Below are positions 3,984 to 59,633 of a stretch of 64,000 nt of DNA, in pieces. The position numbers and the translations under genes were made by a program. The notes under the pieces are model-generated. The model did no database searches and was not told where the DNA came from. It saw only the letters and a program-made list of their open reading frames with translations. Each line of letters opens with the position of its first letter. Within the stretch, counting starts at the first letter, position 1. Origin of the DNA: an uncultured Candidatus Saccharibacteria bacterium (lineage in GTDB: Bacteria > Patescibacteriota > Minisyncoccia > UBA6257 > 2-01-FULL-56-20); NCBI GenBank assembly GCA_964646415.1, contig CAZYEL010000002.1:8538-72537 (forward strand), read 5' to 3'.

Positions 3984-4946
3984 ATGCTTATTGATGACGT
4001 AACAATCACGGTTGTTTCCGGCAACGGCGGGAGAGGCGCCGTCGCGTTCAACAAAAATATGATGAGTCTGGGCCCCGCCGGCGGCTCCGGCGGGAATGGC
4101 GGAAGCGTCTATGCGGAAGGTATTCCGGACATCGGCGCCTTGCGGCAGTTCCGCCACAAAAAAGAATTTGCCGCGATGAACGGCGGAGAGGGCAGAAGCC
4201 AATTCCGGGACGGACGCGACGGCGACGACCTTACTCTTAAAATGCCGGTGGGAACCGCCATCCATAGCCTCGACACCGAGGAAACCGTCGAAGTAACGAA
4301 GGTCGGCGAGCGGATACTCCTCGCGCAGGGCGGCCACGGAGGCAAAGGCAACTTTCAATATAGGTCATCCACGAATACTTCGCCCCGAGAGTTCCAGAAC
4401 GGATTCCCGGGCGAGAATCTTACGCTCCGGTTTGAATTGAAACTTATTGCGGACGTGGGATTCGTGGGACTTCCGAACGCCGGGAAATCGAGCTTTTTGA
4501 ACGAGCTCACCAACGCGAAAGCCAGGGTGGCGAATTATCCCTTCACCACGCTCGAACCGAATCTCGGCGCATATTACGAACTCATTCTTGCGGATATCCC
4601 AGGGCTGATTGAGGGCTCCTCCTCGGGCAAGGGACTTGGGGTAAAATTCCTGCGCCACATTGAGCGCACACGGATTCTCTTCCACCTCGTTTCCGCCGAA
4701 TCCCCCGCTCCCGCCGATGATTACCGGATTGTCCGGAAAGAACTGGATACTTATGCAAAAGCGCTTGTCGAAAAACCGGAGTATCTTTTCCTTTCTAAAA
4801 GCGATTGCGTACCCCCTGCGGAACTGAAGAAAAAGCTTGCAACACTGAAGAAAATTAATCCCAAGGTGATCGCCATCTCCATCCACGACGAAGCAAGCAT
4901 CATAAAAATCCAGAAAATCCTGAATACTCTGAAAACGGCAAAGTAG
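3984..4946 (+). CDS. obg: GTPase Obg
   Basis: The Obg fold N-terminus is glycine-rich. The G domain carries GFVGLPNAGKSSFLN, a DIPGLIEG switch and the other GTPase motifs. Confidence 0.9.
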   Translation: MLIDDVTITVVSGNGGRGAVAFNKNMMSLGPAGGSGGNGGSVYAEGIPDIGALRQFRHKKEFAAMNGGEGRSQFRDGRDGDDLTLKMPVGTAIHSLDTEETVEVTKVGERILLAQGGHGGKGNFQYRSSTNTSPREFQNGFPGENLTLRFELKLIADVGFVGLPNAGKSSFLNELTNAKARVANYPFTTLEPNLGAYYELILADIPGLIEGSSSGKGLGVKFLRHIERTRILFHLVSAESPAPADDYRIVRKELDTYAKALVEKPEYLFLSKSDCVPPAELKKKLATLKKINPKVIAISIHDEASIIKIQKILNTLKTAK

Positions 4947-15550: not shown

Positions 15551-15590
15551 CATATACAAACTTATTGCACGTGCAATAAGTTTGTATATG
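15551..15590. repeat. 40-bp perfect palindrome catatacaaacttattgcac|gtgcaataagtttgtatatg
   Basis: Read directly from the sequence. It is AT-rich and lies between the convergent EamA pseudogene (+) and uvrA (-). A partial copy of the leader-element arm (atcaacgaataacg, 15517..15530) lies just 5' of it. Confidence 0.8.
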
Positions 15591-15695: not shown

Positions 15696-18269
15696 TTATG
15701 CGCCTGCTCTTCCCAATACTTTGCGGAGATACTCCCCCGTAAAACTTCCTTTCTTACGCGCAATCTCTTCGGGAGTGCCCGCCGCCACAATTTCACCTCC
15801 CTTCTCCCCTCCTTCGGGACCAAGGTCAATCACCCAGTCCGCGGTCTTGATGACGTCCAAGTTATGCTCGATTACGACAACCGTGTTCCCGCGGTCAGCG
15901 AGCCGTTGAAGGACTTGCAGCAATTTATCCACGTCCGCGAAGTGAAGTCCCGTCGTCGGCTCGTCCAAAATATACAGCGTACGGCGCGTGTCGCGCTTCC
16001 CCAATTCCGACGCAAGCTTCACGCGCTGGGCTTCGCCTCCAGAGAGCGTCGTCGCGGACTGTCCTAATTCCAAATACCCCAATCCAACCTCATCCAAAAT
16101 TTTGAGACGATCCGCAAGCCACGGGATATCATCGAAGAATTTCACCGCTTCCTCAATCGTGAGTTTCAAAATCTCAAATATATTTTTACCTTTGTATTCC
16201 ACCGCAAGTGTCTCGCGATCGAAGCGTTTGCCTTTGCAGATATCGCACTGGATATAGACCGTCGGCAAAAAGTGCATCTCGATTGCGAGCGTGCCATGCC
16301 CCTCGCAATTCTCACACCGTCCGCCGGGAACGTTGAAACTAAACCGGCCGGGCTTGTAGCCGCGTACTTTCGCATCTGGCGTTGCGGCAAAAAGGTCGCG
16401 GATAAACGTCCAAGCACCCACATAGGTCGCCGGGTTTGAGCGCGGCGTGCGTCCGATTGCCGACTGGTCAATGTTAATCACGCGGTTCACGTGCTCCAGT
16501 CCGAAGATGCCGCTGTGCACGCCTTCCTTATAGCTCGAACCATGCCACCGGTTCGCGAGCGTCTTGTAAAGCACGTCATACACCAAACTCGACTTCCCCG
16601 AACCCGAGACGCCGGTTACCGCCGTGAAACGCCCTACGGGAATTTCCACGTCGATGTTCTTGAGATTATTTTCCTTTGCGCCTTTGATGGAAATGAACTT
16701 CGTCCCCTTGCCGATGCCGCGCCGTTCGCTCGGAACATTAATAAATCGCTTGCCCCGGAGGTACTCAAGCGTAAGCGACTGGGGAAATGCTCCCATGCTC
16801 TTCGCCGAGAGTATTTCCGGTATCGCACCTTGCGCCACAATCTTTCCTCCGTGTACTCCCGCGCCGGGTCCGAAATCAACCAGGTGGTCGCTCTCACGGA
16901 TGGTTTCCTCATCGTGCTCCACCACCACAATCGTGTTCCCCAGGTCACGGAGGTCATGAAGCGTCTTGATAAGCTTTGCATTGTCGCGCTGATGCAATCC
17001 GATCGTCGGCTCGTCCAAAATATAGAGCGTCCCCACGAGGCGCGAACCCACCTGCGACGCGAGGCGTATCCGCTGCGCTTCGCCGCCGGAAAGTGTTCCC
17101 GCCCGCCGCTCCAACGTAAGGTACTCGAGCCCCACATCAAGCATAAACTTCAGCCGGTTTTTAATCTCACGGAGCGGCGCTTCGGCAATTTCCTTGAAGC
17201 GTGCGGCGCCTTTAAGTTCAAGCTTTCCCATAAAGTCATATGCCTCGCCGATGGAGTAGGCAACCACTGATGCGATATTTTTCCCCTGAATCAAGACGTT
17301 CAGACTTTCCTCTTTAAGCCGTTTTCCCGCGCATATAGGACAAATTTTCTCGGACCACAAATCCTCCGTGCCCAATCCATGGCATTGCGGACATGCACCA
17401 TACGGACTGTTAAACGAGAAAAGGCGCGGTTCGATTTCCGGAAACGAGAATCCGTCGTTCGGGCAGGTAAATTTTGCGGAAAGAGACACCTCCTTGTCCG
17501 TCACGACCGTCACCACGTCATTGCCGTACTTCAAAGCAGTCTCAATCGCTTCGGAGAGCCGTAAGCGGTTGTCCTTTATGTCTTGTCCGCCAGAGGCGGA
17601 TCCGCCTTCGGCGGAAAATCTCACGCCCGCGGGAATACGGTCAACTACCAAATCAATGGAATGAGCTTTGTAGCGGCTAAGCTCCACCCGCTCACGGAGC
17701 GTTTTATAAATTCCATCCACACGCACCTCGGAGAACCCCGCATTCAAAAAGTCGTAGAGCAGCTGGTAATACTCCCCTTTCCGTCCGCGCACGACAGGCG
17801 CAAGAATCACAATGTTTTTCTTTGATTTATTTTCATTCGAAATCTGAATCGCAACATCCACAATTTCCTCATTCGTCATTTTCTGGATTTCTTTGCCGCA
17901 CTTGGGACAATGCGGCTTTCCCGCACGGGCAAAAAGCACGCGGAGATAGTCGTAAATTTCCGTCACCGTTGCCACCGTCGAGCGCGGATTCGAAGAGTGG
18001 CTCTTTTGGTCAATCGAAATTGCCGGTGAGAGCCCTTCAATATCGTCTATATCCGGCTTATCAAGCCGCCCCAAGAACTGCCGCGCATATGCGGAGAGCG
18101 ATTCGATATAACGGCGCTGGCCTTCCGCGAAAATCGTATCGAACGCCATGCTCGATTTCCCCGAACCGGAAAGGCCGGTAAACACGACCATTTTGTCGCG
18201 CGGTATTTCGAGATTTATGTTCTTTAAATTGTGCTCGCGCGCTCCTTTTATGATGATTTTGTCTTTCAT
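15696..18269 (-). CDS. uvrA: Excinuclease ABC subunit A
   Basis: Two ABC ATPase modules ([18 protein letters not shown]) with zinc-finger Cys clusters. I set the start at the ATG giving [18 protein letters not shown]. The 39-aa track extension is an alternative-start artefact. Confidence 0.95.
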
Positions 18270-18310
18270 GATTCCTTGCTTATATGCGCAATTCTGATTC
18301 CCAATATGCC

Positions 18311-18342
18311 GAGGATTAACCTCCTGCAGGAGGTTAATCCTC
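18311..18342. promoter_or_regulatory. 32-bp perfect palindrome gaggattaacctcctg|caggaggttaatcctc, about 42 nt upstream of the uvrA start
   Basis: Read directly from the sequence. It is centred on CTGCAG. Its position matches an operator overlapping the uvrA promoter. It is not a canonical LexA box. Confidence 0.6.
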
Positions 18343-18718
18343 GAAACATTGATCATAACGCAGAAACCGCCCCCTCCATGCGGCATATAGAGGGTAGCAG
18401 GGGAAAGTGTACCTCATCACCAACAAAAAACCACCTTCTCGCGGCGGGTTATACGGAGAGTTTCCTGCTGGCTTTAGCAGGAAACTCTATCTTGGTTCTT
18501 CGCCTCGCGCTTGAAACTCCTCCGCTGGTTTCACAAGTTATTGACTCTCAACGTGATACCCAAGGGCAACACATGCTTCGAGTCCTTGTGGTGAAATATT
18601 GTTTTGAACGGAAGTTTTGCACGAGCCTCAGAACCGTAATAATTTTCCCGCTTCTTTCCAAAAAGTCAATGGGGACATGGGGAGATGTGGTGGATAACCC
18701 CCGAGAAAAAGTGGATAA

Positions 18719-20836
18719 CTAAGTCTTTTCTGTGGATAGACTTTTCATATTCTTTGCGAGAACCTTGATTTCATCCCGCAAAATCGCGGCAAGCTCGAAA
18801 TTCAGTCCTTTCGCGGCTTCCCGCATCTCCCGCTCCTTCTCCCGCATAAGTTTTTCCATGGCGGTTTTGGATTTGGGGATGGGTTTGAGCTCAAGCTTCA
18901 ATACCTCTTCGGGCAAAATACTCGCGATTTTTCGGACAATCGTCTTCGGTGTAATGCCATGCTTTTCGTTATAAGCGATCTGGAGCTTCCGGCGCCGTTC
19001 GGTCTCCGACATCGCGCGCCTGATCGAACCCGTGATGTGATCCGCATACATGAGCACTTCCCCGCGCACGTTCCGCGCGGCCCGCCCGATGGTCTGGATG
19101 AGCGAGGTCTCACTCCGCAAAAATCCTTCCTTGTCCGCATCGAGAATCGCGACAAGCGAGACCTCCGGCAAATCAAGCCCCTCACGCAGGAGATTTACGC
19201 CCACGAGTACGTCGAACCCTCCTTTCACTTCTGAACCTTTCCGGAGATTCGTGAGAATCCGGATGCGGTCGAGCGTTTTTACATCAGAGTGCAAATATGC
19301 AACTTGTATCCCCTTGTCGCTTTTCGCTTGTCGCTTGTTACTAAGGTACTCCGCAAGGTCCTCCGCCATCTTTTTGGTAAGCGTCGTCACAAGTACCCGC
19401 TCTTTTGCCGCAATGCGCTCTTCAATGCGCGGGATCAAGTCGTCCACCTGCCCGCGCGCGGGGCGAATGGTGATTTTGGGGTCGATAAGCCCCGTTGGTC
19501 GTATTATCTGTTCTACGACCAACCCTGAGCCCGTCGAAGGGTCGGACTTCTTCAACTCATACAGCCCCGGAGTCGCAGAAGTGTATATCACCTGCCCCAC
19601 GCGCTTTTCGAACTCCGCGAACTTCAACGGCCGGTTATCCGCTGCGGAGGGAAGACGGAACCCGTATTCGATGAGCGTTCTCTTCCGCGATGCGTCGCCA
19701 TGATACATCCCCTGAATCTGCGGCACGGTGATGTGGGACTCGTCAATGATAGTCAGGAAATCGGGCGTTCCCAAGGTTCGACCTTGAGAATCCCCTAAAG
19801 GTCGAACCTTTGATGCACTTCGAGGAAAGTAGTCGAGGAGCGTATCCGGCGGCTCCCCTGCCGCGCGCCCGGAAAGATGCCGCGAGTAATTCTCGATGCC
19901 GTGGCAATAACCGATCTCGCGAATCATCGCGACGTCGAACTTCGTCCTGCGCTCGAGCCGTTCCGCCTCGAGAAACTTTTTGTTGTCCTCAAAATATTTG
20001 AGTTGCGCCTTGAGCTCCTCCTGAATCGCGCCGATTGCACGCTCACGGGCGTCCTTTTCGGTAATAAAGTGCTTTGCGGGCGGAATAATCACTTCCTCAA
20101 GCGGCGGAGTCTTCCCGTGCCGGAAACCCACGACGGGGTCGACTTCATAAATTGCGGCGATGGTGCCGCTCCGGACTTCCATGTTGTAAATCACCTCTCG
20201 GTCGGGCGGCATTATTTCCCAGTTTTCCCCGCGGAGACGGAACGTGCCGCGTTTCAAGTCGGAATTCGTGCGCGTAAACTGGAGCTCGATAAGTTTCCGC
20301 GCAAATTCTTTCCGTTCCATCCTATCCCCCACCTTGAACCGAAAAATATTCGCGGCATAGGTTTCGGGGGCGCCTAAGCCATAAATGCAGGAAACGGATG
20401 CCACCACAATCACGTCCCTGCGCGTGAGAAGCGCCGTTGTCGCCGCGTGGCGCAGCTTATCAATCTCGTCGTTGATGAGCGCTTCCTTGTCGATATAGGT
20501 GTCGGACGACGGAATATACGCCTCCGGCTGGTAATAATCGTAGTAGGATACGAAATAATTCACCGAATTCTTCGGGAACAGTTCCCTGAATTCATTCGTA
20601 AGTTGCGCCGCGAGCGTCTTGTTGTGCGCAATCACGAGCGTAGGCCTCTGCACCGCCGCAATCACGTTTGCCACAGTAAATGTTTTTCCGCTCCCCGTGA
20701 CACCCAAAAGCGTCTGGTGGCGATATCCTTTCTCCAAACCAGAAACAAGCTTCTCGATAGCTTGTGGCTGGTCACCAGCAGGCTTTAAATCTTTTGCGAG
20801 TTCGAATCCTGCCATAGCAGAAAAACTATACAGCAA
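18719..20836 (-). CDS. uvrB: Excinuclease ABC subunit B
   Basis: The helicase motifs (GVTGSGKT, DESH) and the UvrB beta-hairpin region are present. It also carries an unusual 19-aa in-frame insertion (see the repeat feature at 19766..19822). Confidence 0.95.
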   Translation of the reverse strand: MLYSFSAMAGFELAKDLKPAGDQPQAIEKLVSGLEKGYRHQTLLGVTGSGKTFTVANVIAAVQRPTLVIAHNKTLAAQLTNEFRELFPKNSVNYFVSYYDYYQPEAYIPSSDTYIDKEALINDEIDKLRHAATTALLTRRDVIVVASVSCIYGLGAPETYAANIFRFKVGDRMERKEFARKLIELQFTRTNSDLKRGTFRLRGENWEIMPPDREVIYNMEVRSGTIAAIYEVDPVVGFRHGKTPPLEEVIIPPAKHFITEKDARERAIGAIQEELKAQLKYFEDNKKFLEAERLERRTKFDVAMIREIGYCHGIENYSRHLSGRAAGEPPDTLLDYFPRSASKVRPLGDSQGRTLGTPDFLTIIDESHITVPQIQGMYHGDASRKRTLIEYGFRLPSAADNRPLKFAEFEKRVGQVIYTSATPGLYELKKSDPSTGSGLVVEQIIRPTGLIDPKITIRPARGQVDDLIPRIEERIAAKERVLVTTLTKKMAEDLAEYLSNKRQAKSDKGIQVAYLHSDVKTLDRIRILTNLRKGSEVKGGFDVLVGVNLLREGLDLPEVSLVAILDADKEGFLRSETSLIQTIGRAARNVRGEVLMYADHITGSIRRAMSETERRRKLQIAYNEKHGITPKTIVRKIASILPEEVLKLELKPIPKSKTAMEKLMREKEREMREAAKGLNFELAAILRDEIKVLAKNMKSLSTEKT
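19766..19822 (-). repeat. In-frame 57-nt palindromic insertion inside uvrB, encoding RSASKVRPLGDSQGRTLGT
   Basis: It lies between the conserved DYFP and PDFLTIIDESH segments. The DNA holds inverted copies of aaggttcgacctt and aaggtcgaacctt (19771..19812). Confidence 0.6.
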
Positions 20837-20857: not shown

Positions 20858-20881
20858 CTACCATTCGAGCGAATGGTTCTT
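20858..20881. promoter_or_regulatory. Palindromic motif tctaccattcgagcgaatggttct upstream of uvrB
   Basis: It is near-identical to ctctacctttcgagcgaaaggttct upstream of the ArsR-family gene, and related to the 40-bp palindrome at 41075..41114. Confidence 0.55.
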
Positions 20882-20975: not shown

Positions 20976-21383
20976 TTATTTTAAACACTTTGGAAGGCCA
21001 TTAAACCGAACGCAATCTTTAAATGTTTCCCACATAGAATCAACCTCATTTTTAGTATATATATTTTTCTGTACTTCTATCGTTTTATCCATAAACTTTT
21101 CATAAAATTCTTGATACCTCACGTAATTATTATTAATGTAATCGATTGCTACGACAACAAAGGCTATTGCCACCGCAACGGTCACTCCCACTATAAGGTT
21201 ATGGATGACTTTTATTCCTTCTCTTGTTTTTTCTATCTCAGAATCCAAAACGGAAACCTTTTTACCTAAAGTAGTTATGAGCGCATCCACCTCCGTACTT
21301 CCACTTCCCGCTTGACTTCCTGTCGCTGCTGCCCTACTTTCTGTCCCGGCTCCTGCGGCTGTCTCAGTTTGGATCTCGGGCAT
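20976..21383 (-). CDS. Hypothetical single-pass membrane protein (AT-rich cassette, gene 3)
   Basis: A low-complexity Ala/Gly/Ser/Thr N-terminus, one transmembrane helix (IVGVTVAVAIAFVVVAI), and no recognisable domain. Local GC is clearly lower than in the flanks. Confidence 0.45.
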   Translation of the reverse strand: MPEIQTETAAGAGTESRAAATGSQAGSGSTEVDALITTLGKKVSVLDSEIEKTREGIKVIHNLIVGVTVAVAIAFVVVAIDYINNNYVRYQEFYEKFMDKTIEVQKNIYTKNEVDSMWETFKDCVRFNGLPKCLK

Positions 21384-21387
21384 ATTA

Positions 21388-21768
21388 TCAATCTACTGTA
21401 ATAATGTCGTTTCTATCGAAGCTCACTACTTGATCGTTAATTTTAAAAATAATTCTATAGATGCCTTTTTCTGGAAAACGAGCCCCAATGAGGTTAATCA
21501 CTAGATTTGCATTGGGCTTGTTTTCGAGATTGACAAGTTTCATTTCCGAAGAAACAATTTTATTACCACTGGGCGATATAATTTCGATTGTTTTCTTTTT
21601 ATCAAAAATCACACCCGTCACGTTAATTGCAATTGAAAACCTCGGATGAAAAGCTGGAAGACCATCCGTTTTAATCAGATCAAATATACCTATAACACTT
21701 AATTTTTTTTCTTCCGAAAAAAAGGCGTTCTCGCATACATGCAGAAAATTTATCTTAAAATCATTCAT
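21388..21768 (-). CDS. Hypothetical small protein (AT-rich cassette, gene 2)
   Basis: 126 aa with beta-rich composition and no recognisable motif. It lies 20 nt downstream of the protease gene and 4 nt upstream of gene 3, which suggests translational coupling. Confidence 0.4.
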   Translation of the reverse strand: MNDFKINFLHVCENAFFSEEKKLSVIGIFDLIKTDGLPAFHPRFSIAINVTGVIFDKKKTIEIISPSGNKIVSSEMKLVNLENKPNANLVINLIGARFPEKGIYRIIFKINDQVVSFDRNDIITVD

Positions 21769-21788
21769 TGTTTTTTACAGAATATTAC

Positions 21789-22814
21789 TCACTTCCACCC
21801 CTGCTCCATAATTCTCCATCCGACCTGTTCTTGCGGGACTTGAATCGGCCCCTGCGGGGTCTGCTGCACCATATTCACTTGCTGTTTGCGGTATTCGATG
21901 GAAAGCTCAAAGTGGCGTGATTCCTGCCAACTTTCGATAAACGCAATCTTATATTGCTTTCGATTTTGCATAGCATTTATACCCAACTCGTTTTCCGGGT
22001 TCCAGAGCGTTTCAAGGTCCATATCTTTCCTGTACTCCTCAAACAGCTCCGTCATCGCCTTCGCAAGAAGGTTATCCGCGTACGCAACCGACTTCAAACC
22101 CAAGTCCTCCTTCGCCTCCTTTCGCCCGATGAAATACTGGTGCGAGTAAAGTTTTTCGGTGAAGTAATCAACAATCTTTTCCACTTCATCATCCTTCATT
22201 GGCGCTTTATGACTCTTCAGCAACCGCTTCGCGAGGATGCGGATGAGGTTATGAATACGGTTTACGTTCCCGAGCGCCAAAGGATGAATCTGCGGATTCG
22301 ACTCCACGAATTTCGAGAAGATACGCGAAAGCTCTTCGTCGTTCTTGATACCGAACTTATTTTTCGCCAAATCGAAATATGCCATCACGTCCTCGACGGA
22401 AATCGGGATTCTGTTCTGCGGGTTCTGGGGGTCTTGCGGGTTGAAAACATTCGCCGTTGAGGGGTCGATCGGCGAGATTTCTGAAAGGTCGCTCATCGCA
22501 ATTTCATCCGCGCCGAGAGCAATCATCGTCGCCGCACTGTGCGCCTTATACGGCACGAGTACGGAAAACTTATCACAATACTCCCGAATCATGGACACAA
22601 TCCTCCACGGCACCATTGTGTCGCCTCCGGCACTATAGAGAAACAGGTCGATATTCTGGGTTTTCCCGATTGCGCGGAGTTGCTTGCTCACCACGGGAAT
22701 CACGTCCATCGCAATCCGCGCGTTCACCGGTCCTGTCCGGTCGCTTGTGACATAGGTAATTACCCGCGAATTCCGTAGTCCTTGTATCTGATGTATGAGT
22801 TGTTTCTTATCCAT
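21789..22814 (-). CDS. SDH-family (ClpP-fold) serine protease (AT-rich cassette, gene 1)
   Basis: The core IDLFLYSAGGDTMVPWRIVSMIREYCDKFSVLVPYKAHSAATMIALGADEIAMSDLSEISPIDP matches the serine dehydrogenase proteinase (ClpP-class) core (...HTPGG...AMSGGT.IALAADEI...PVDP). About 170 extra C-terminal residues follow. Confidence 0.7.
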   Translation of the reverse strand: MDKKQLIHQIQGLRNSRVITYVTSDRTGPVNARIAMDVIPVVSKQLRAIGKTQNIDLFLYSAGGDTMVPWRIVSMIREYCDKFSVLVPYKAHSAATMIALGADEIAMSDLSEISPIDPSTANVFNPQDPQNPQNRIPISVEDVMAYFDLAKNKFGIKNDEELSRIFSKFVESNPQIHPLALGNVNRIHNLIRILAKRLLKSHKAPMKDDEVEKIVDYFTEKLYSHQYFIGRKEAKEDLGLKSVAYADNLLAKAMTELFEEYRKDMDLETLWNPENELGINAMQNRKQYKIAFIESWQESRHFELSIEYRKQQVNMVQQTPQGPIQVPQEQVGWRIMEQGWK

Positions 22815-22858
22815 CGCAATAAGGCAATTATACTCCAGTCATCCCAACTTTCCAACAG

Positions 22859-22904
22859 TTTCGTACTATTCGCTTATTCGTACGAATAAGCGAATAGTAC
22901 GAAA
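22859..22904. promoter_or_regulatory. 46-bp perfect palindrome tttcgtactattcgcttattcgta|cgaataagcgaatagtacgaaa at the 5' end of the AT-rich cassette
   Basis: Read directly from the sequence. It is centred on GTAC. It lies 45 nt upstream of the protease start and 44 nt downstream of the MazG-like stop. Confidence 0.75.
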
Positions 22905-22947: not shown

Positions 22948-23325
22948 CTACCGCGTATCCCCGTCGCCGTGGAGCGTCCCGCGCTCCTTACGCGAGAAAA
23001 GCTTTTCGATGTTCCCCTTCGCAACTTCTTCGAGCGAGAGCCCAAGCTCGGTTGCAACCTGCGCCACGTACCACAACACATCGCCAAGTTCCCCGCGAAG
23101 CGCCGCCTTTCGCTCATCGCTCATAACCCCACCGTCATCCCGAAACGCTTTCTTCACTTTTTCCGCAACCTCCCCCACCTCCCCGGCAAGTCCCAAAACC
23201 GGATACACCAAATTACTGCCGCTATTCGGATAAATCGCCGTCTTGCGGGATTCCTTTTGGTATTCTTCGAATGTCATCGCCGTGAATTTATTTTTTATGG
23301 CAACCCTGCCTTCGACAAAGGGCAA
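22948..23325 (-). CDS. MazG-like nucleotide pyrophosphohydrolase (all-alpha NTP-PPase)
   Basis: The motif EVGEVAEKVKK...ELGDVLWYV is typical of small MazG-domain proteins. Confidence 0.7.
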   Translation of the reverse strand: MPFVEGRVAIKNKFTAMTFEEYQKESRKTAIYPNSGSNLVYPVLGLAGEVGEVAEKVKKAFRDDGGVMSDERKAALRGELGDVLWYVAQVATELGLSLEEVAKGNIEKLFSRKERGTLHGDGDTR

Positions 23326-24061: not shown

Positions 24062-24133
24062 TATACCCCGCGCGGGAAATTTTCCGGGATTTTTTCCCGC
24101 CCAATCCTTGGGAGGATCATAATTTCACGATAT

Positions 24134-24162
24134 TTGACAATCCTCGTCAAACCTGCTATCAT
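24134..24162 (+). promoter_or_regulatory. Sigma70-type promoter TTGACA-17-TATCAT for the 3D-domain gene
   Basis: TTGACA at 24134..24139 and TATCAT at 24157..24162, with a 17-nt spacer. A small GC hairpin followed by a U-tract (24182..24204) sits in the leader, before an AAGGA Shine-Dalgarno sequence. Confidence 0.6.
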
Positions 24163-24223
24163 ATCCCCTAACAATTGAATACCCCTTCAAAGGGGGGTTT
24201 TTATTTAAGCGGCGCAAGGAATC

Positions 24224-29131: not shown

Positions 29132-29346
29132 ACTCTCCAATCTATACCTCGATATGGATGCGGGAAAGGGGTCGGGGAAACGGGAGCTTCCCCGTTGCGG
29201 AAGTATTGAAACCGCTGGGTTTCAAGGAGCGGAGCGACGCATCCATGTCTAAATGAGAAATTATTCGCATGGCTGCATTATCACCCTCCAGGAATAAAGA
29301 AGCTTCGAGAATTCTCGAAGCTTCTTTCCCTCCGGACGCATACCTT

Positions 29347-41074: not shown

Positions 41075-41114
41075 CCCCTCATTCTACCTTTCGCGCGAAA
41101 GGTAGAATGAGGGG
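41075..41114. promoter_or_regulatory. 40-bp perfect palindrome cccctcattctacctttcgc|gcgaaaggtagaatgagggg, about 110 nt upstream of secA and 30 nt downstream of the ArsR-family gene
   Basis: Read directly from the sequence. Its core TACCTTTCG-CG-CGAAAGGTA is related to the motifs at 41447..41470 and 20858..20881. Confidence 0.7.
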
Positions 41115-41142: not shown

Positions 41143-41403
41143 CTACAGTAAAGCAATGATCCGCTCTACCGGAACGGACTGACTCCTGGCAAGCCAATAA
41201 TATGCCTGCGCGCTCCGCTGCTCGCGCTCCACAATGTCGCACCCACTAAGTATGCCGAGATGCTTTGAAGTTGCTTTGAGTGAAATGCGAACCTCCCGGG
41301 CAATATCTCCCACGGAGGCCTCGCCGTGATGTTTGAGGTGCTTAAGAATCGCAAGCCGCCTCCTATTGGCAAGTGCTTTTAGCGGTTTCTCCATTTCGCG
41401 CAT
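41143..41403 (-). CDS. ArsR/SmtB-family transcriptional regulator
   Basis: The winged helix-turn-helix ANRRRLAILKHLKHHGEASVGDIAREVRISLKATSKHLGIL. Confidence 0.8.
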   Translation of the reverse strand: MREMEKPLKALANRRRLAILKHLKHHGEASVGDIAREVRISLKATSKHLGILSGCDIVEREQRSAQAYYWLARSQSVPVERIIALL

Positions 41404-41446
41404 AGCAATAAAATTGCAAAAAATATCCAGTGCCTCTCTCCTATAC

Positions 41447-41470
41447 TCTACCTTTCGAGCGAAAGGTTCT
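41447..41470. promoter_or_regulatory. Palindromic motif tctacctttcgagcgaaaggttct in the promoter region of the ArsR-family gene
   Basis: Read directly from the sequence. It lies about 45-65 nt upstream of the arsR-like start. Confidence 0.6.
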
Positions 41471-41489
41471 CATAACGGGCGGCTTTTCG

Positions 41490-52242: not shown

Positions 52243-52312
52243 ATCAACGAATACCGAATGGATTGCGAATTTACGAATTCGTACATTCGAAATAGATTCG
52301 TTATTCGCTGAT
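52243..52312 (-). repeat. Conserved leader element, copy A, ending 8 nt upstream of the mraZ ATG
   Basis: Plus strand atcaacgaataccgaatgg...ttcgttattcgctgat. It has about 19-bp terminal inverted repeats and shares both arms with the copies at 58777..58859 and 59411..59489. Confidence 0.75.
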
Positions 52313-52515
52313 GGTTATACCCAGAAGTGAGGACTTATCCACAGCTTTATCCACTTCCCCCCACTTTGATACAATCTTATACCACTTTTATCTACTGTCA
52401 AAACAATTAAAAACTCGCGAGGAAAACAAAAAATGCCTTATTTTTCAAGGCAATTCTCAAGACAAGACACAAACTATGCACAGTTCCCCTTTACGGGGGC
52501 TTCCCCACTCTCGAT

Positions 52516-53959: not shown

Positions 53960-54046
53960 AAATTCTAAATTCTAATATCGAAATTCGAAACAATATCTAA
54001 TTTCAAATGTTTAAAATTCAAAACGGTTTGGGTTATTGTCCTCCAA

Positions 54047-54060
54047 AGGCGGATCCGCCT
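54047..54060. repeat. REP-like palindrome aGGCGGATCCGCCt in the livG-livF spacer
   Basis: The 12-bp perfect core GGCGGATCCGCC. A second copy at 54950..54961 has a similar flank, ctcc..ag/GGCGGATCCGCC/t.cgg.gg. Confidence 0.6.
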
Positions 54061-54131
54061 CGGGCGGAAGATTTTGAACATTGGGATTTGTTTAGGATTT
54101 CGGATTTAGATATTAGGATTTGTGGCGAGCT

Positions 54132-54878: not shown

Positions 54879-54949
54879 ATATACTAATGCGTACTAATTA
54901 TACGAATCGGAATTCCTATTGGTATCATTAGCATGAATTCTCCGCCAGA

Positions 54950-54961
54950 GGCGGATCCGCC
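54950..54961. repeat. REP-like palindrome GGCGGATCCGCC in the livM-livG spacer
   Basis: The second copy of the 12-bp palindrome, nested inside ctccgcc...ggcggatccgcc...cggagg. Confidence 0.6.
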
Positions 54962-54994
54962 TTCGGAGGAGTATATTAATATTAGCATCGCGTA

Positions 54995-58776: not shown

Positions 58777-58859
58777 ATCAACGAATATCGAATGGATTGC
58801 GAATGACCCAATAAAACCTCGCAATTCGTAAATTCGTAAAATATTCGTTATTCGATGAT
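58777..58859 (-). repeat. Conserved leader element, copy B, ending 7 nt upstream of the rplL ATG
   Basis: Plus strand atcaacgaatatcgaatggattgcgaatg...ttcgtaaaatattcgttattcgatgat. Confidence 0.75.
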
Positions 58860-59410: not shown

Positions 59411-59489
59411 ATCAACGAATATCGAATTGAGAACGAATAAACGAATGAATCTCATTCGCAAATTCGTACAATATTCGTTATTCGCTGAT
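59411..59489 (-). repeat. Conserved leader element, copy C, ending 8 nt upstream of the rplJ ATG
   Basis: Plus strand atcaacgaatatcgaattgagaacgaataaacgaatg...aattcgtacaatattcgttattcgctgat. A TATAAT box lies immediately upstream on the transcribed strand. Confidence 0.75.
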
Positions 59490-59633
59490 TATAAATAAAA
59501 ACAGCCCCCTCCAAAGGCCGTCCGAGAATGACGATGACTCGTCATATTTCCTCGGCGGGGCTTACTCCTTGCGAATGCCCGCTGTCTTTGGATTTGGGTA
59601 CTATAGCATGCGCCCCACCGACGTCAACCTCCC

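Follow-up and report, generated by a model that had tools for sequence, protein, structure and literature searches.

Between a MazG-like gene and the protease gene that follows it, a 46-nt segment of DNA reads identically on both strands, and the question raised by this locus is what so long a symmetry might serve. The first-pass annotation of the window, that is, of the whole 64,000-nt stretch of DNA analyzed here, had considered an operator for a dimeric repressor, a bidirectional terminator, an insertion or recombination boundary, and a site of TA-like autoregulation. Comparison with related loci favors the operator. With a probability of about 0.7, the palindrome would be the operator of an ArsR/SmtB-family regulator, placed in front of a horizontally acquired protease operon.

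The palindrome and the protease cassette

The features around the palindrome are as follows.

22859..22904, no strand assigned: 46-nt perfect palindrome, its own reverse complement, both halves found in independent Logan assemblies
22948..23277, minus strand: MazG-like gene upstream of the palindrome, from domain annotation
22827..22855, minus strand: sigma-70-type promoter of the protease operon, TTGGAA, 17 nt, TATAAT
21789..22814, minus strand: ClpP-like SDH-type serine protease (Pfam PF01972), first gene of the cassette
21388..21768, minus strand: DUF6941 gene of the cassette, from domain annotation
20976..21383, minus strand: hypothetical gene of the cassette, an ORF of 135 aa
20916..20951, minus strand: canonical intrinsic terminator closing the cassette, a 16-bp GC-rich stem followed by a T-run

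The two arms, TTTCGTACTATTCGCTTATTCGT and ACGAATAAGCGAATAGTACGAAA, form a perfect 23+23 inverted repeat whose symmetry stops at the non-pairing flanking bases G/G. Both the perfection of this repeat and its rarity had been claimed earlier, and both are confirmed by the letters of the window, since the number expected by chance in 64 kb is approximately 64000 x 4^-23, or about 1e-9. In at least five SRA runs, Logan contigs carry MazG, the left arm and 7 nt of the right arm; in two other SRA runs, they carry 7 nt of the left arm, the right arm and the protease. All of these contigs stop 30 nt into the palindrome, as expected of a k=31 graph. Because both arms are reproduced by independent contigs, the palindrome is not an assembly artefact. 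A search of the 64-kb window with the 23-nt arm gave no second match with up to three mismatches allowed, leaving the palindrome as a single copy and, within these 64 kb, without the several near-identical copies of a REP- or MITE-type element.

The genes around the palindrome are all on the minus strand. The MazG-like gene ends 43 nt before it and the protease ATG (22814) follows 44 nt after it, so that the earlier placement between the MazG-like stop and the protease start holds and only its spacings, given as 44 and 45 nt, were off by a trivial amount. The AT-rich cassette described at the same time is also real, with a GC content of 0.38 at 21001-22000 against approximately 0.53 elsewhere. 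The -35 of the protease promoter lies 3 nt from the edge of the palindrome, and the protease leader is very short because the ATG comes 12 nt after the -10. The terminator scan listed no canonical terminator in the mazG-protease spacer.

Homologues of the protease number more than 3000, and identity is 81-100% for the best 120. Among the matches listed, homologues occur in Liptonbacteria, other Parcubacteria, Azambacteria and Omnitrophota in unrelated neighborhoods, and the protease therefore moves horizontally, often though not always followed by DUF6941. PADLOC returned no match for the three cassette proteins or MazG. The palindrome is absent upstream of the protease in L004, L006, L010 and L133 (Parcubacteria, Omnitrophota and other MAGs), where the upstream regions are short and AT-rich. 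Since protease upstream regions outside Liptonbacteria-like genomes lack the palindrome, it is not part of the mobile gene, and the idea of a cassette-borne site was ruled out on the same grounds.

Two relatives have a palindrome at the same position. In L003, where the protease is 97% identical and the nth...uvrB locus is shared in the absence of MazG, it is a perfect 32-nt palindrome with arms CTATTTTCTTATTCGC and GCGAATAAGAAAATAG. In L129, where the protease is 93% identical and MazG is present, it spans 30 nt. Relative to both, the window palindrome has three substitutions per arm, each mirrored in the opposite arm, and it is 7 nt longer per side than the 32-nt version. An alignment of the three upstream regions contains three conserved blocks (the palindrome core, the -35, and the -10/start region) with variable sequence between them; the -35 and the -10 are both conserved in L003 and L129, and the spacers vary. 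Where gene content differs among three relatives, the changes lie on the downstream side of the protease and on the upstream side of the palindrome, and not at the palindrome itself.

A shared candidate operator motif

At the center of the palindrome lies the segment to which the operator reading refers.

22869..22894, no strand assigned: 26-bp operator core with 12-2-12 layout, arms TTCGCTTATTCGT and ACGAATAAGCGAA, 25.9 bits with the position weight matrix (PWM)

The center can be written ATTCG-CTT-ATTCG-TA-CGAAT-AAG-CGAAT, with ATTCG units at 22868-72 and 22876-80 and CGAAT units at 22883-87 and 22891-95, which overhang the 26-bp span by 1 nt on each side. The arms around the central dinucleotide are each 12 nt long, as TTCGCTTATTCG-TA-CGAATAAGCGAA. 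Sites from other loci, when aligned on their centers, read ATTCn-N3-ATTCG-N2-CGAAT-N3-nGAAT in the same 12-2-12 layout. Across 947 kb of CPR DNA, ATTCG-N2-CGAAT is present in 10 copies (0.9 expected), and the spacings 0, 1 and 3-8 give 0-4 copies. The shorter core TTCG-NN-CGAA has 8 copies in the 64-kb window against approximately 1 expected, and half of these (4/8) are intergenic, namely in the palindrome (22877), in the uvrB promoter (20864), at the center of a second palindrome (41075-41114) and at 41454. Variants of ATTCGNNCGAAT with a single mismatch show no enrichment in the window (7 against 5.5 expected); therefore only exact cores and matches at the level of the PWM are informative.

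Training of the PWM used 13 sites taken from other loci and promoters, with no protease-upstream site among them, so that the palindrome and its orthologues were excluded. Its scores in the window are 33.3 bits at 41090, 26.4 at 20864, 25.9 at 22877 (the palindrome, third best) and 20.0 at 41454. After these top four, the best match outside the training set reaches 12.7 bits, and the maximum over 20 shuffled windows was 17.7 bits. Details of the palindrome's arms recur elsewhere, as CGAATAAGCGAATAAG in L138, three times as CTATTCGCTCATTCG in L143 and as CGAATGTGCGAAT in L140. From these sequence comparisons, membership of the palindrome in the putative operator family of an ArsR-like regulator can be regarded as established. 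Literature searches for the motif strings gave nothing relevant.

The ArsR-like regulator

The candidate regulator and the other members of the family in the window are these.

41143..41403, minus strand: 86-aa winged-helix regulator of the ArsR/SmtB family, candidate binding protein (tblastn, Pfam HTH_5, NCBIfam NF033788)
41446..41471, minus strand: operator in the regulator's own promoter, TTTCG-CT-CGAAAGG then TAGAGT, PWM 20.0 bits
41075..41114, no strand assigned: 40-nt perfect palindrome with the operator TTTCG-CG-CGAAA, PWM 33.3 bits
20856..20881, minus strand: operator in the uvrB promoter, ACCATTCG-CT-CGAATGG then directly TAGAAT, PWM 26.4 bits (uvrB ATG at 20815)

The regulator scores 33.2 bits against Pfam HTH_5 (cutoff 22) and 66.6 bits against NCBIfam NF033788, "metalloregulator ArsR/SmtB family transcription factor" (cutoff 55). 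Its nearest solved relatives are HlyU, SrnR, NolR and BigR, with weak phmmer matches of 25-35.5 bits (E = 1e-7 to 2e-4). At E < 1e-8 there are 702 homologues, nearly all of 86 aa, from Parcubacteria-type MAGs. The window therefore contains an ArsR/SmtB-type protein together with a site at its own promoter (41454), and the 41075..41114 palindrome fills the spacer between the regulator's stop codon and the start of secA (40966).

The same arrangement recurs around homologous regulators. A metagenome scan with the regulator alignment gave four loci, and more distant loci were reached by exact-protein look-ups; the regulators in the counted loci are 58-85% identical to that of the window. All nine loci counted have TTCG-NN-CGAA no more than 150 nt upstream of the regulator gene (binomial p = 3e-23), and eight of the nine also have it within 150 nt downstream (p = 8e-20), given a background rate of 0.021 per kb measured in 814 kb of other CPR loci. 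The genes that come after the downstream site are diverse: secA, nth, a zinc-ribbon protein, an RNA-ligase-like gene, DUF456, Sua5 and a glycosylase-like gene. In L003, a regulator copy of 60% identity precedes nth, with the site TAATTCGTACGAATGGTAGAAT followed by ATG in its own promoter and a second site past its stop codon. This operator-regulator-operator unit, at 4620-5120 of L003, is additional with respect to the window, which has a plain 160-nt spacer at 24062-24223; the regulator and its two flanking sites are therefore gained or lost as a unit. The proposal of an operator for a dimeric regulator gains from these comparisons, as the center of the palindrome matches a family of operators found beside an ArsR/SmtB-type wHTH gene at each of the loci examined. 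We infer, as the parsimonious choice, that the ArsR-like protein probably binds the palindrome.

How the proposed operator may act

In the proposed mechanism, the 26-bp core, an inverted repeat of four pentamers (ATTCG-N3-ATTCG-N2-CGAAT-N3-CGAAT) in the 12-2-12 arrangement, would be recognized by this regulator, which is widespread in Parcubacteria. By analogy with ArsR/SmtB proteins, it may bind as a dimer or as two dimers. Located between the MazG-like gene and the sigma-70 promoter, the bound regulator would set the transcription that enters the protease-DUF6941 cassette.

At the regulator's own promoters and at uvrB, the gene-facing outer unit doubles as the -10 (TAGAAT, TAGAGT, GAGAAT or TATAAT), and a protein bound there would occlude it, amounting to classical repression. 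At the palindrome, the sequence of both outer units is GCGAAT; without the A that is essential at position 2, it does not qualify as a -10. The operator center instead lies 49 nt upstream of the real -10, at approximately -61 from the predicted start, and simple promoter occlusion is for these reasons not applicable. The distance from operator center to -10 is 50 nt in L003 and 49 nt in L129, and L138 has a comparable layout at 46 nt. The 26-bp core itself ends 13 nt from the -35. One option is repression by a roadblock to read-through from nth-mazG, suggested by the lack of a terminator between mazG and the protease. Another is interference with the stretch immediately preceding the -35, given that the full 46-nt palindrome ends only 3 nt from that element. 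The third option is activation from a class-I-like position at about -61, which comes into consideration because the nearest relative, HlyU, is an activator. Against the operator reading as a whole stand the 18 kb that separate the regulator gene from the palindrome and a putative regulon without a single theme (secA, uvrB, nth, a glycosylase-like gene, Sua5 and the protease).

Extra symmetry and the RNA-hairpin alternative

Beyond the 26-bp operator, ten further positions in each arm are perfectly paired, and the operator does not account for them. Similar behavior is seen in the secA spacer, where the palindrome is 40 nt long in the window (41075-41114) and 36 nt in L134 (approximately 2768-2803), with three arm differences that are all mirrored. 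Each secA-spacer palindrome consists of two mirrored copies of the operator half plus a TAGAAT-like hexamer. Upstream of uvrB, L003 has a 15+15 palindrome that mirrors what is the uvrB promoter in the window. Long palindromes with little or no loop are frequent in the intergenic DNA of CPR genomes, with about 35 that have arms of at least 16 nt and loops of 0-6 nt in approximately 1 Mb of CPR loci. We infer that the 46-nt extent is lineage-specific and that it came about either from arm-to-arm copying (template switching) or from an added hairpin function, with selection on the stems as RNA or DNA hairpins.

An added hairpin function leads to the alternative in which the palindrome works, as its main or second role, as an RNA hairpin at the 3' end of the nth-mazG message, be it a terminator without a U-tract, a 3' stabilizer or an RNase III site that insulates the cassette. 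The transcript would form a stable stem-loop with a 20-bp stem (-35.7 kcal/mol, z = -6.6), and no canonical terminator intervenes to end the message before the protease. The perfect pairing reaches well past the operator, the three mirrored pairs relative to L003 and L129 are the expected product of selection on a stem, and the secA palindrome likewise comes after a gene end. However, neither strand has a U-tract: the palindrome has TTT at its start and AAA at its end, opposite to the layout of a bidirectional terminator, its 3' flanks are CTGTTGG (minus) and GAATGAC (plus), and the terminator scan did not list it. The evident terminators of this genome are GC-rich, with 3-5-nt loops and T-tails. 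Furthermore, L138, L140 and L142 have short and imperfect palindromes after the regulator gene, which argues that a long stem is not generally required at that position, and in L003 the nearest upstream gene ends approximately 150 nt away. A hairpin role is regarded as unlikely. Within it, a terminator as the main role was rejected for want of a U-tract on either strand, which also leaves the bidirectional terminator suggested by the first-pass annotation unsupported, given that canonical GC-rich, T-tailed terminators exist elsewhere in the genome. A dual terminator and operator role for all sites after the regulator gene was weakened by the several short sites.

Other alternatives

If the palindrome is a protein-binding site, the binder could be another factor that also controls the regulator gene. 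A damage-response repressor, for example, might bind the motif, leaving the ArsR-like gene as merely a constant member of the regulon. The sites at uvrB, nth and the glycosylase-like gene would suit such a protein, and co-occurrence by itself does not name the binder. Yet the sites lie on both sides of the ArsR-like gene in nearly all loci, in very different neighborhoods, as is typical of an autoregulator; the 12-2-12 geometry suits the ArsR/SmtB family, and the motif is unlike known LexA boxes. A different binder is thus considered improbable.

A recombination or cruciform site at the border of an inserted cassette is still harder to sustain. In its favor, sites of the family lie on both sides of the low-GC cassette (22877 and 20864), the mobility of the protease is clear, and the surrounding gene content differs among the three relatives. 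On the other hand, the protease does without such a palindrome in L004, L006, L010 and L133, and the variable points fall downstream of the protease on one side and upstream of the palindrome on the other. No recombinase domain is present in the ten genes between 18.7 and 26.8 kb, and housekeeping promoters carry the same type of site. The earlier suggestion of an insertion boundary is not upheld, as this type of site occurs at many loci that have no cassette and the changes in gene content do not fall at the palindrome. TA-like autoregulation is likewise not supported, as the cassette encodes no DNA-binding protein.

Finally, membership in the CGAAT-rich palindromic repeat family that precedes rplJ, rplL and mraZ (E-type) is scarcely credible: the palindrome shares the CGAAT pentamer and the CGAAT-N3-CGAAT register and is the fourth-densest CGAAT cluster in the window, but an nhmmer family profile that finds the three window copies (E = 1e-13 to 1e-20) misses the palindrome even with the threshold relaxed to E <= 10, the family termini ATCAnCGAAT and ATTCGnTGAT are lacking in it, and its units are everted where the E-type CGAAT units face inward. 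This family was first suspected to include the palindrome, and the family profile ruled it out. The same check addresses the concern, raised at first pass, that the palindrome might belong to a genome-wide REP family; it is not a member of this one.

Other elements in the window

The CGAAT arrays lie at 52243-52312, 58777-58859 and 59411-59490, directly before mraZ, rplL and rplJ, respectively, with the consensus ATCAnCGAATAnCGAAT-N6-CGAAT-N3-CGAATTCG-N3-ATTCG-N6-ATTCGnTATTCGnTGAT. In the window and in L011-L128 they measure 70-86 nt (70-83 nt for the three window copies), with size classes of 70-71 and of 84-86 nt. A search of species-representative genomes with their arm pattern listed more than 118 matching stretches, where approximately 17 were expected. 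Among the matches listed are stretches from Saccharibacteria, many Parcubacteria classes, Gottesmanbacteria and some Bacteroidia, and their neighbors are often ribosomal-protein, groEL or nusG genes. Since the N6 spacers and variable arm positions are not complementary between the arms, the conserved feature is the pentamer array and not a stem. Neither an Rfam family nor a paper was found for the array. At gathering thresholds, Rfam reports two tRNAs only in the whole window, and a permissive Rfam scan around the rplJ and rplL elements gave only hairpin-like chance matches and a sub-threshold L10 leader. The latter, at 59487-59609 on the minus strand (33.4 bits against a gathering threshold of 44, E = 0.002), is immediately upstream of the rplJ array and, if real, would put the array inside the rplJ 5' leader.

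Several other elements were observed. DnaA-box-like 9-mers (TTATCCACA with at most one mismatch) number 26 in the window against 8.6 expected, with three clustered between uvrB and uvrA (18689-18739) and two upstream of the mraZ array (52335-52355); the GC skew has no switch in the window. A double hairpin centered on GGCGGATCCGCC is found at 17583-17618, 54039-54068 and 54937-54974, three exact copies against 0.5 expected, and also in L019 and L090; the copy at 17595 is inside the uvrA reading frame and is translated (10 residues). A small palindromic element, AAGGTTTGACCTT...AAGGTCGAACCTT, is present at 19773-19810 of the window and at 4063-4100 and 5764-5800 of L003, where it occurs in the nth-protease spacer, adjacent to a duplicated nth 3' end. 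Three more perfect palindromes, 32-40 nt long, without a loop and unrelated in sequence, lie between convergent gene ends (15551-15590), before uvrA (18310-18343) and 150 nt before a Y-family polymerase gene (29296-29327). The kinship that had been noted between the 15551-15590 palindrome and the one studied here does not stand, as the former lacks TTCG/CGAA, is not among the top matches of the operator matrix and is located between convergent gene ends.

Significance

CPR/Patescibacteria are largely uncultured, and literature searches found no description of the motif or of a transcription-factor regulon in this group. The present analysis offers a concrete, testable pairing of an 86-aa ArsR-family protein, with approximately 700 homologues, and a putative operator, ATTCn-N3-ATTCG-N2-CGAAT-N3-nGAAT. 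Candidate targets include secA, uvrB, base-excision repair genes and the widely transferred ClpP-like protease cassette. In some of the operators, mirrored substitutions have preserved perfect palindromes of 36-46 nt, for which protein binding alone is no explanation. For annotation, it is of practical value that such palindromes break k-mer assemblies at predictable points.

More speculatively, the palindrome might be one piece of a pentamer-based cis-regulatory code in CPR, in which CGAAT in an 8-bp register builds both the ArsR-like operators and the CGAAT arrays that, from Saccharibacteria to Parcubacteria, precede ribosomal-protein, mraZ, groEL and nusG genes. In such a code, the long palindromes at 22859 and before secA would be kept perfect by active arm-to-arm copying or by a dual function as DNA operator and RNA hairpin. 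This generalization is doubtful at present.

Comparison with known systems

Like intrinsic terminators and REP-type palindromes, the palindrome is intergenic, strongly self-complementary and situated after a gene end. It differs from them in having no U-tract, in being single-copy in the window and in matching an operator family.

LexA and its SOS boxes offer a parallel, with a palindromic site over the uvrB -10, sites before base-excision repair genes and an autoregulated regulator. Here, however, the associated protein is ArsR-like and the motif is different, LexA boxes being GAAC-N4-GTTC in Gram-positive bacteria and CTGT-N8-ACAG in E. coli. The sites described here also precede secA, Sua5 and an RNA-ligase-like gene. 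The SOS network of Patescibacteria was reportedly the subject of a study by Sanchez-Osuna et al. in 2017.

Among the nearest solved relatives of the regulator, HlyU, NolR and BigR are small dimeric wHTH proteins that bind palindromic or near-palindromic sites. HlyU is an activator or anti-silencer, and BigR and NolR are repressors; because the family includes both, it does not settle the sign of regulation at the protease operon. We know of no similarity between the operators of HlyU, NolR or BigR and those associated with the window regulator.

The closest comparison is with the SmtB/ArsR proteins, which are reported to bind 12-2-12 inverted repeats at or near the promoters that they control (PMC8790569). 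The smtA, ziaA and nmtA operator-promoters resemble the sites described here in their arms of approximately 12 nt and 2-nt center, in their placement at the regulator's own and target promoters, and in being paired with a small winged-helix protein of the same family. The units differ, being TGAA/TTCA in the SmtB/ArsR operators and ATTCG/CGAAT here. Moreover, SmtB/ArsR operators lie over the promoter, whereas the present palindrome is centered at approximately -61 and is perfectly symmetrical over 46 nt, and the protein that would bind it has only 86 aa.
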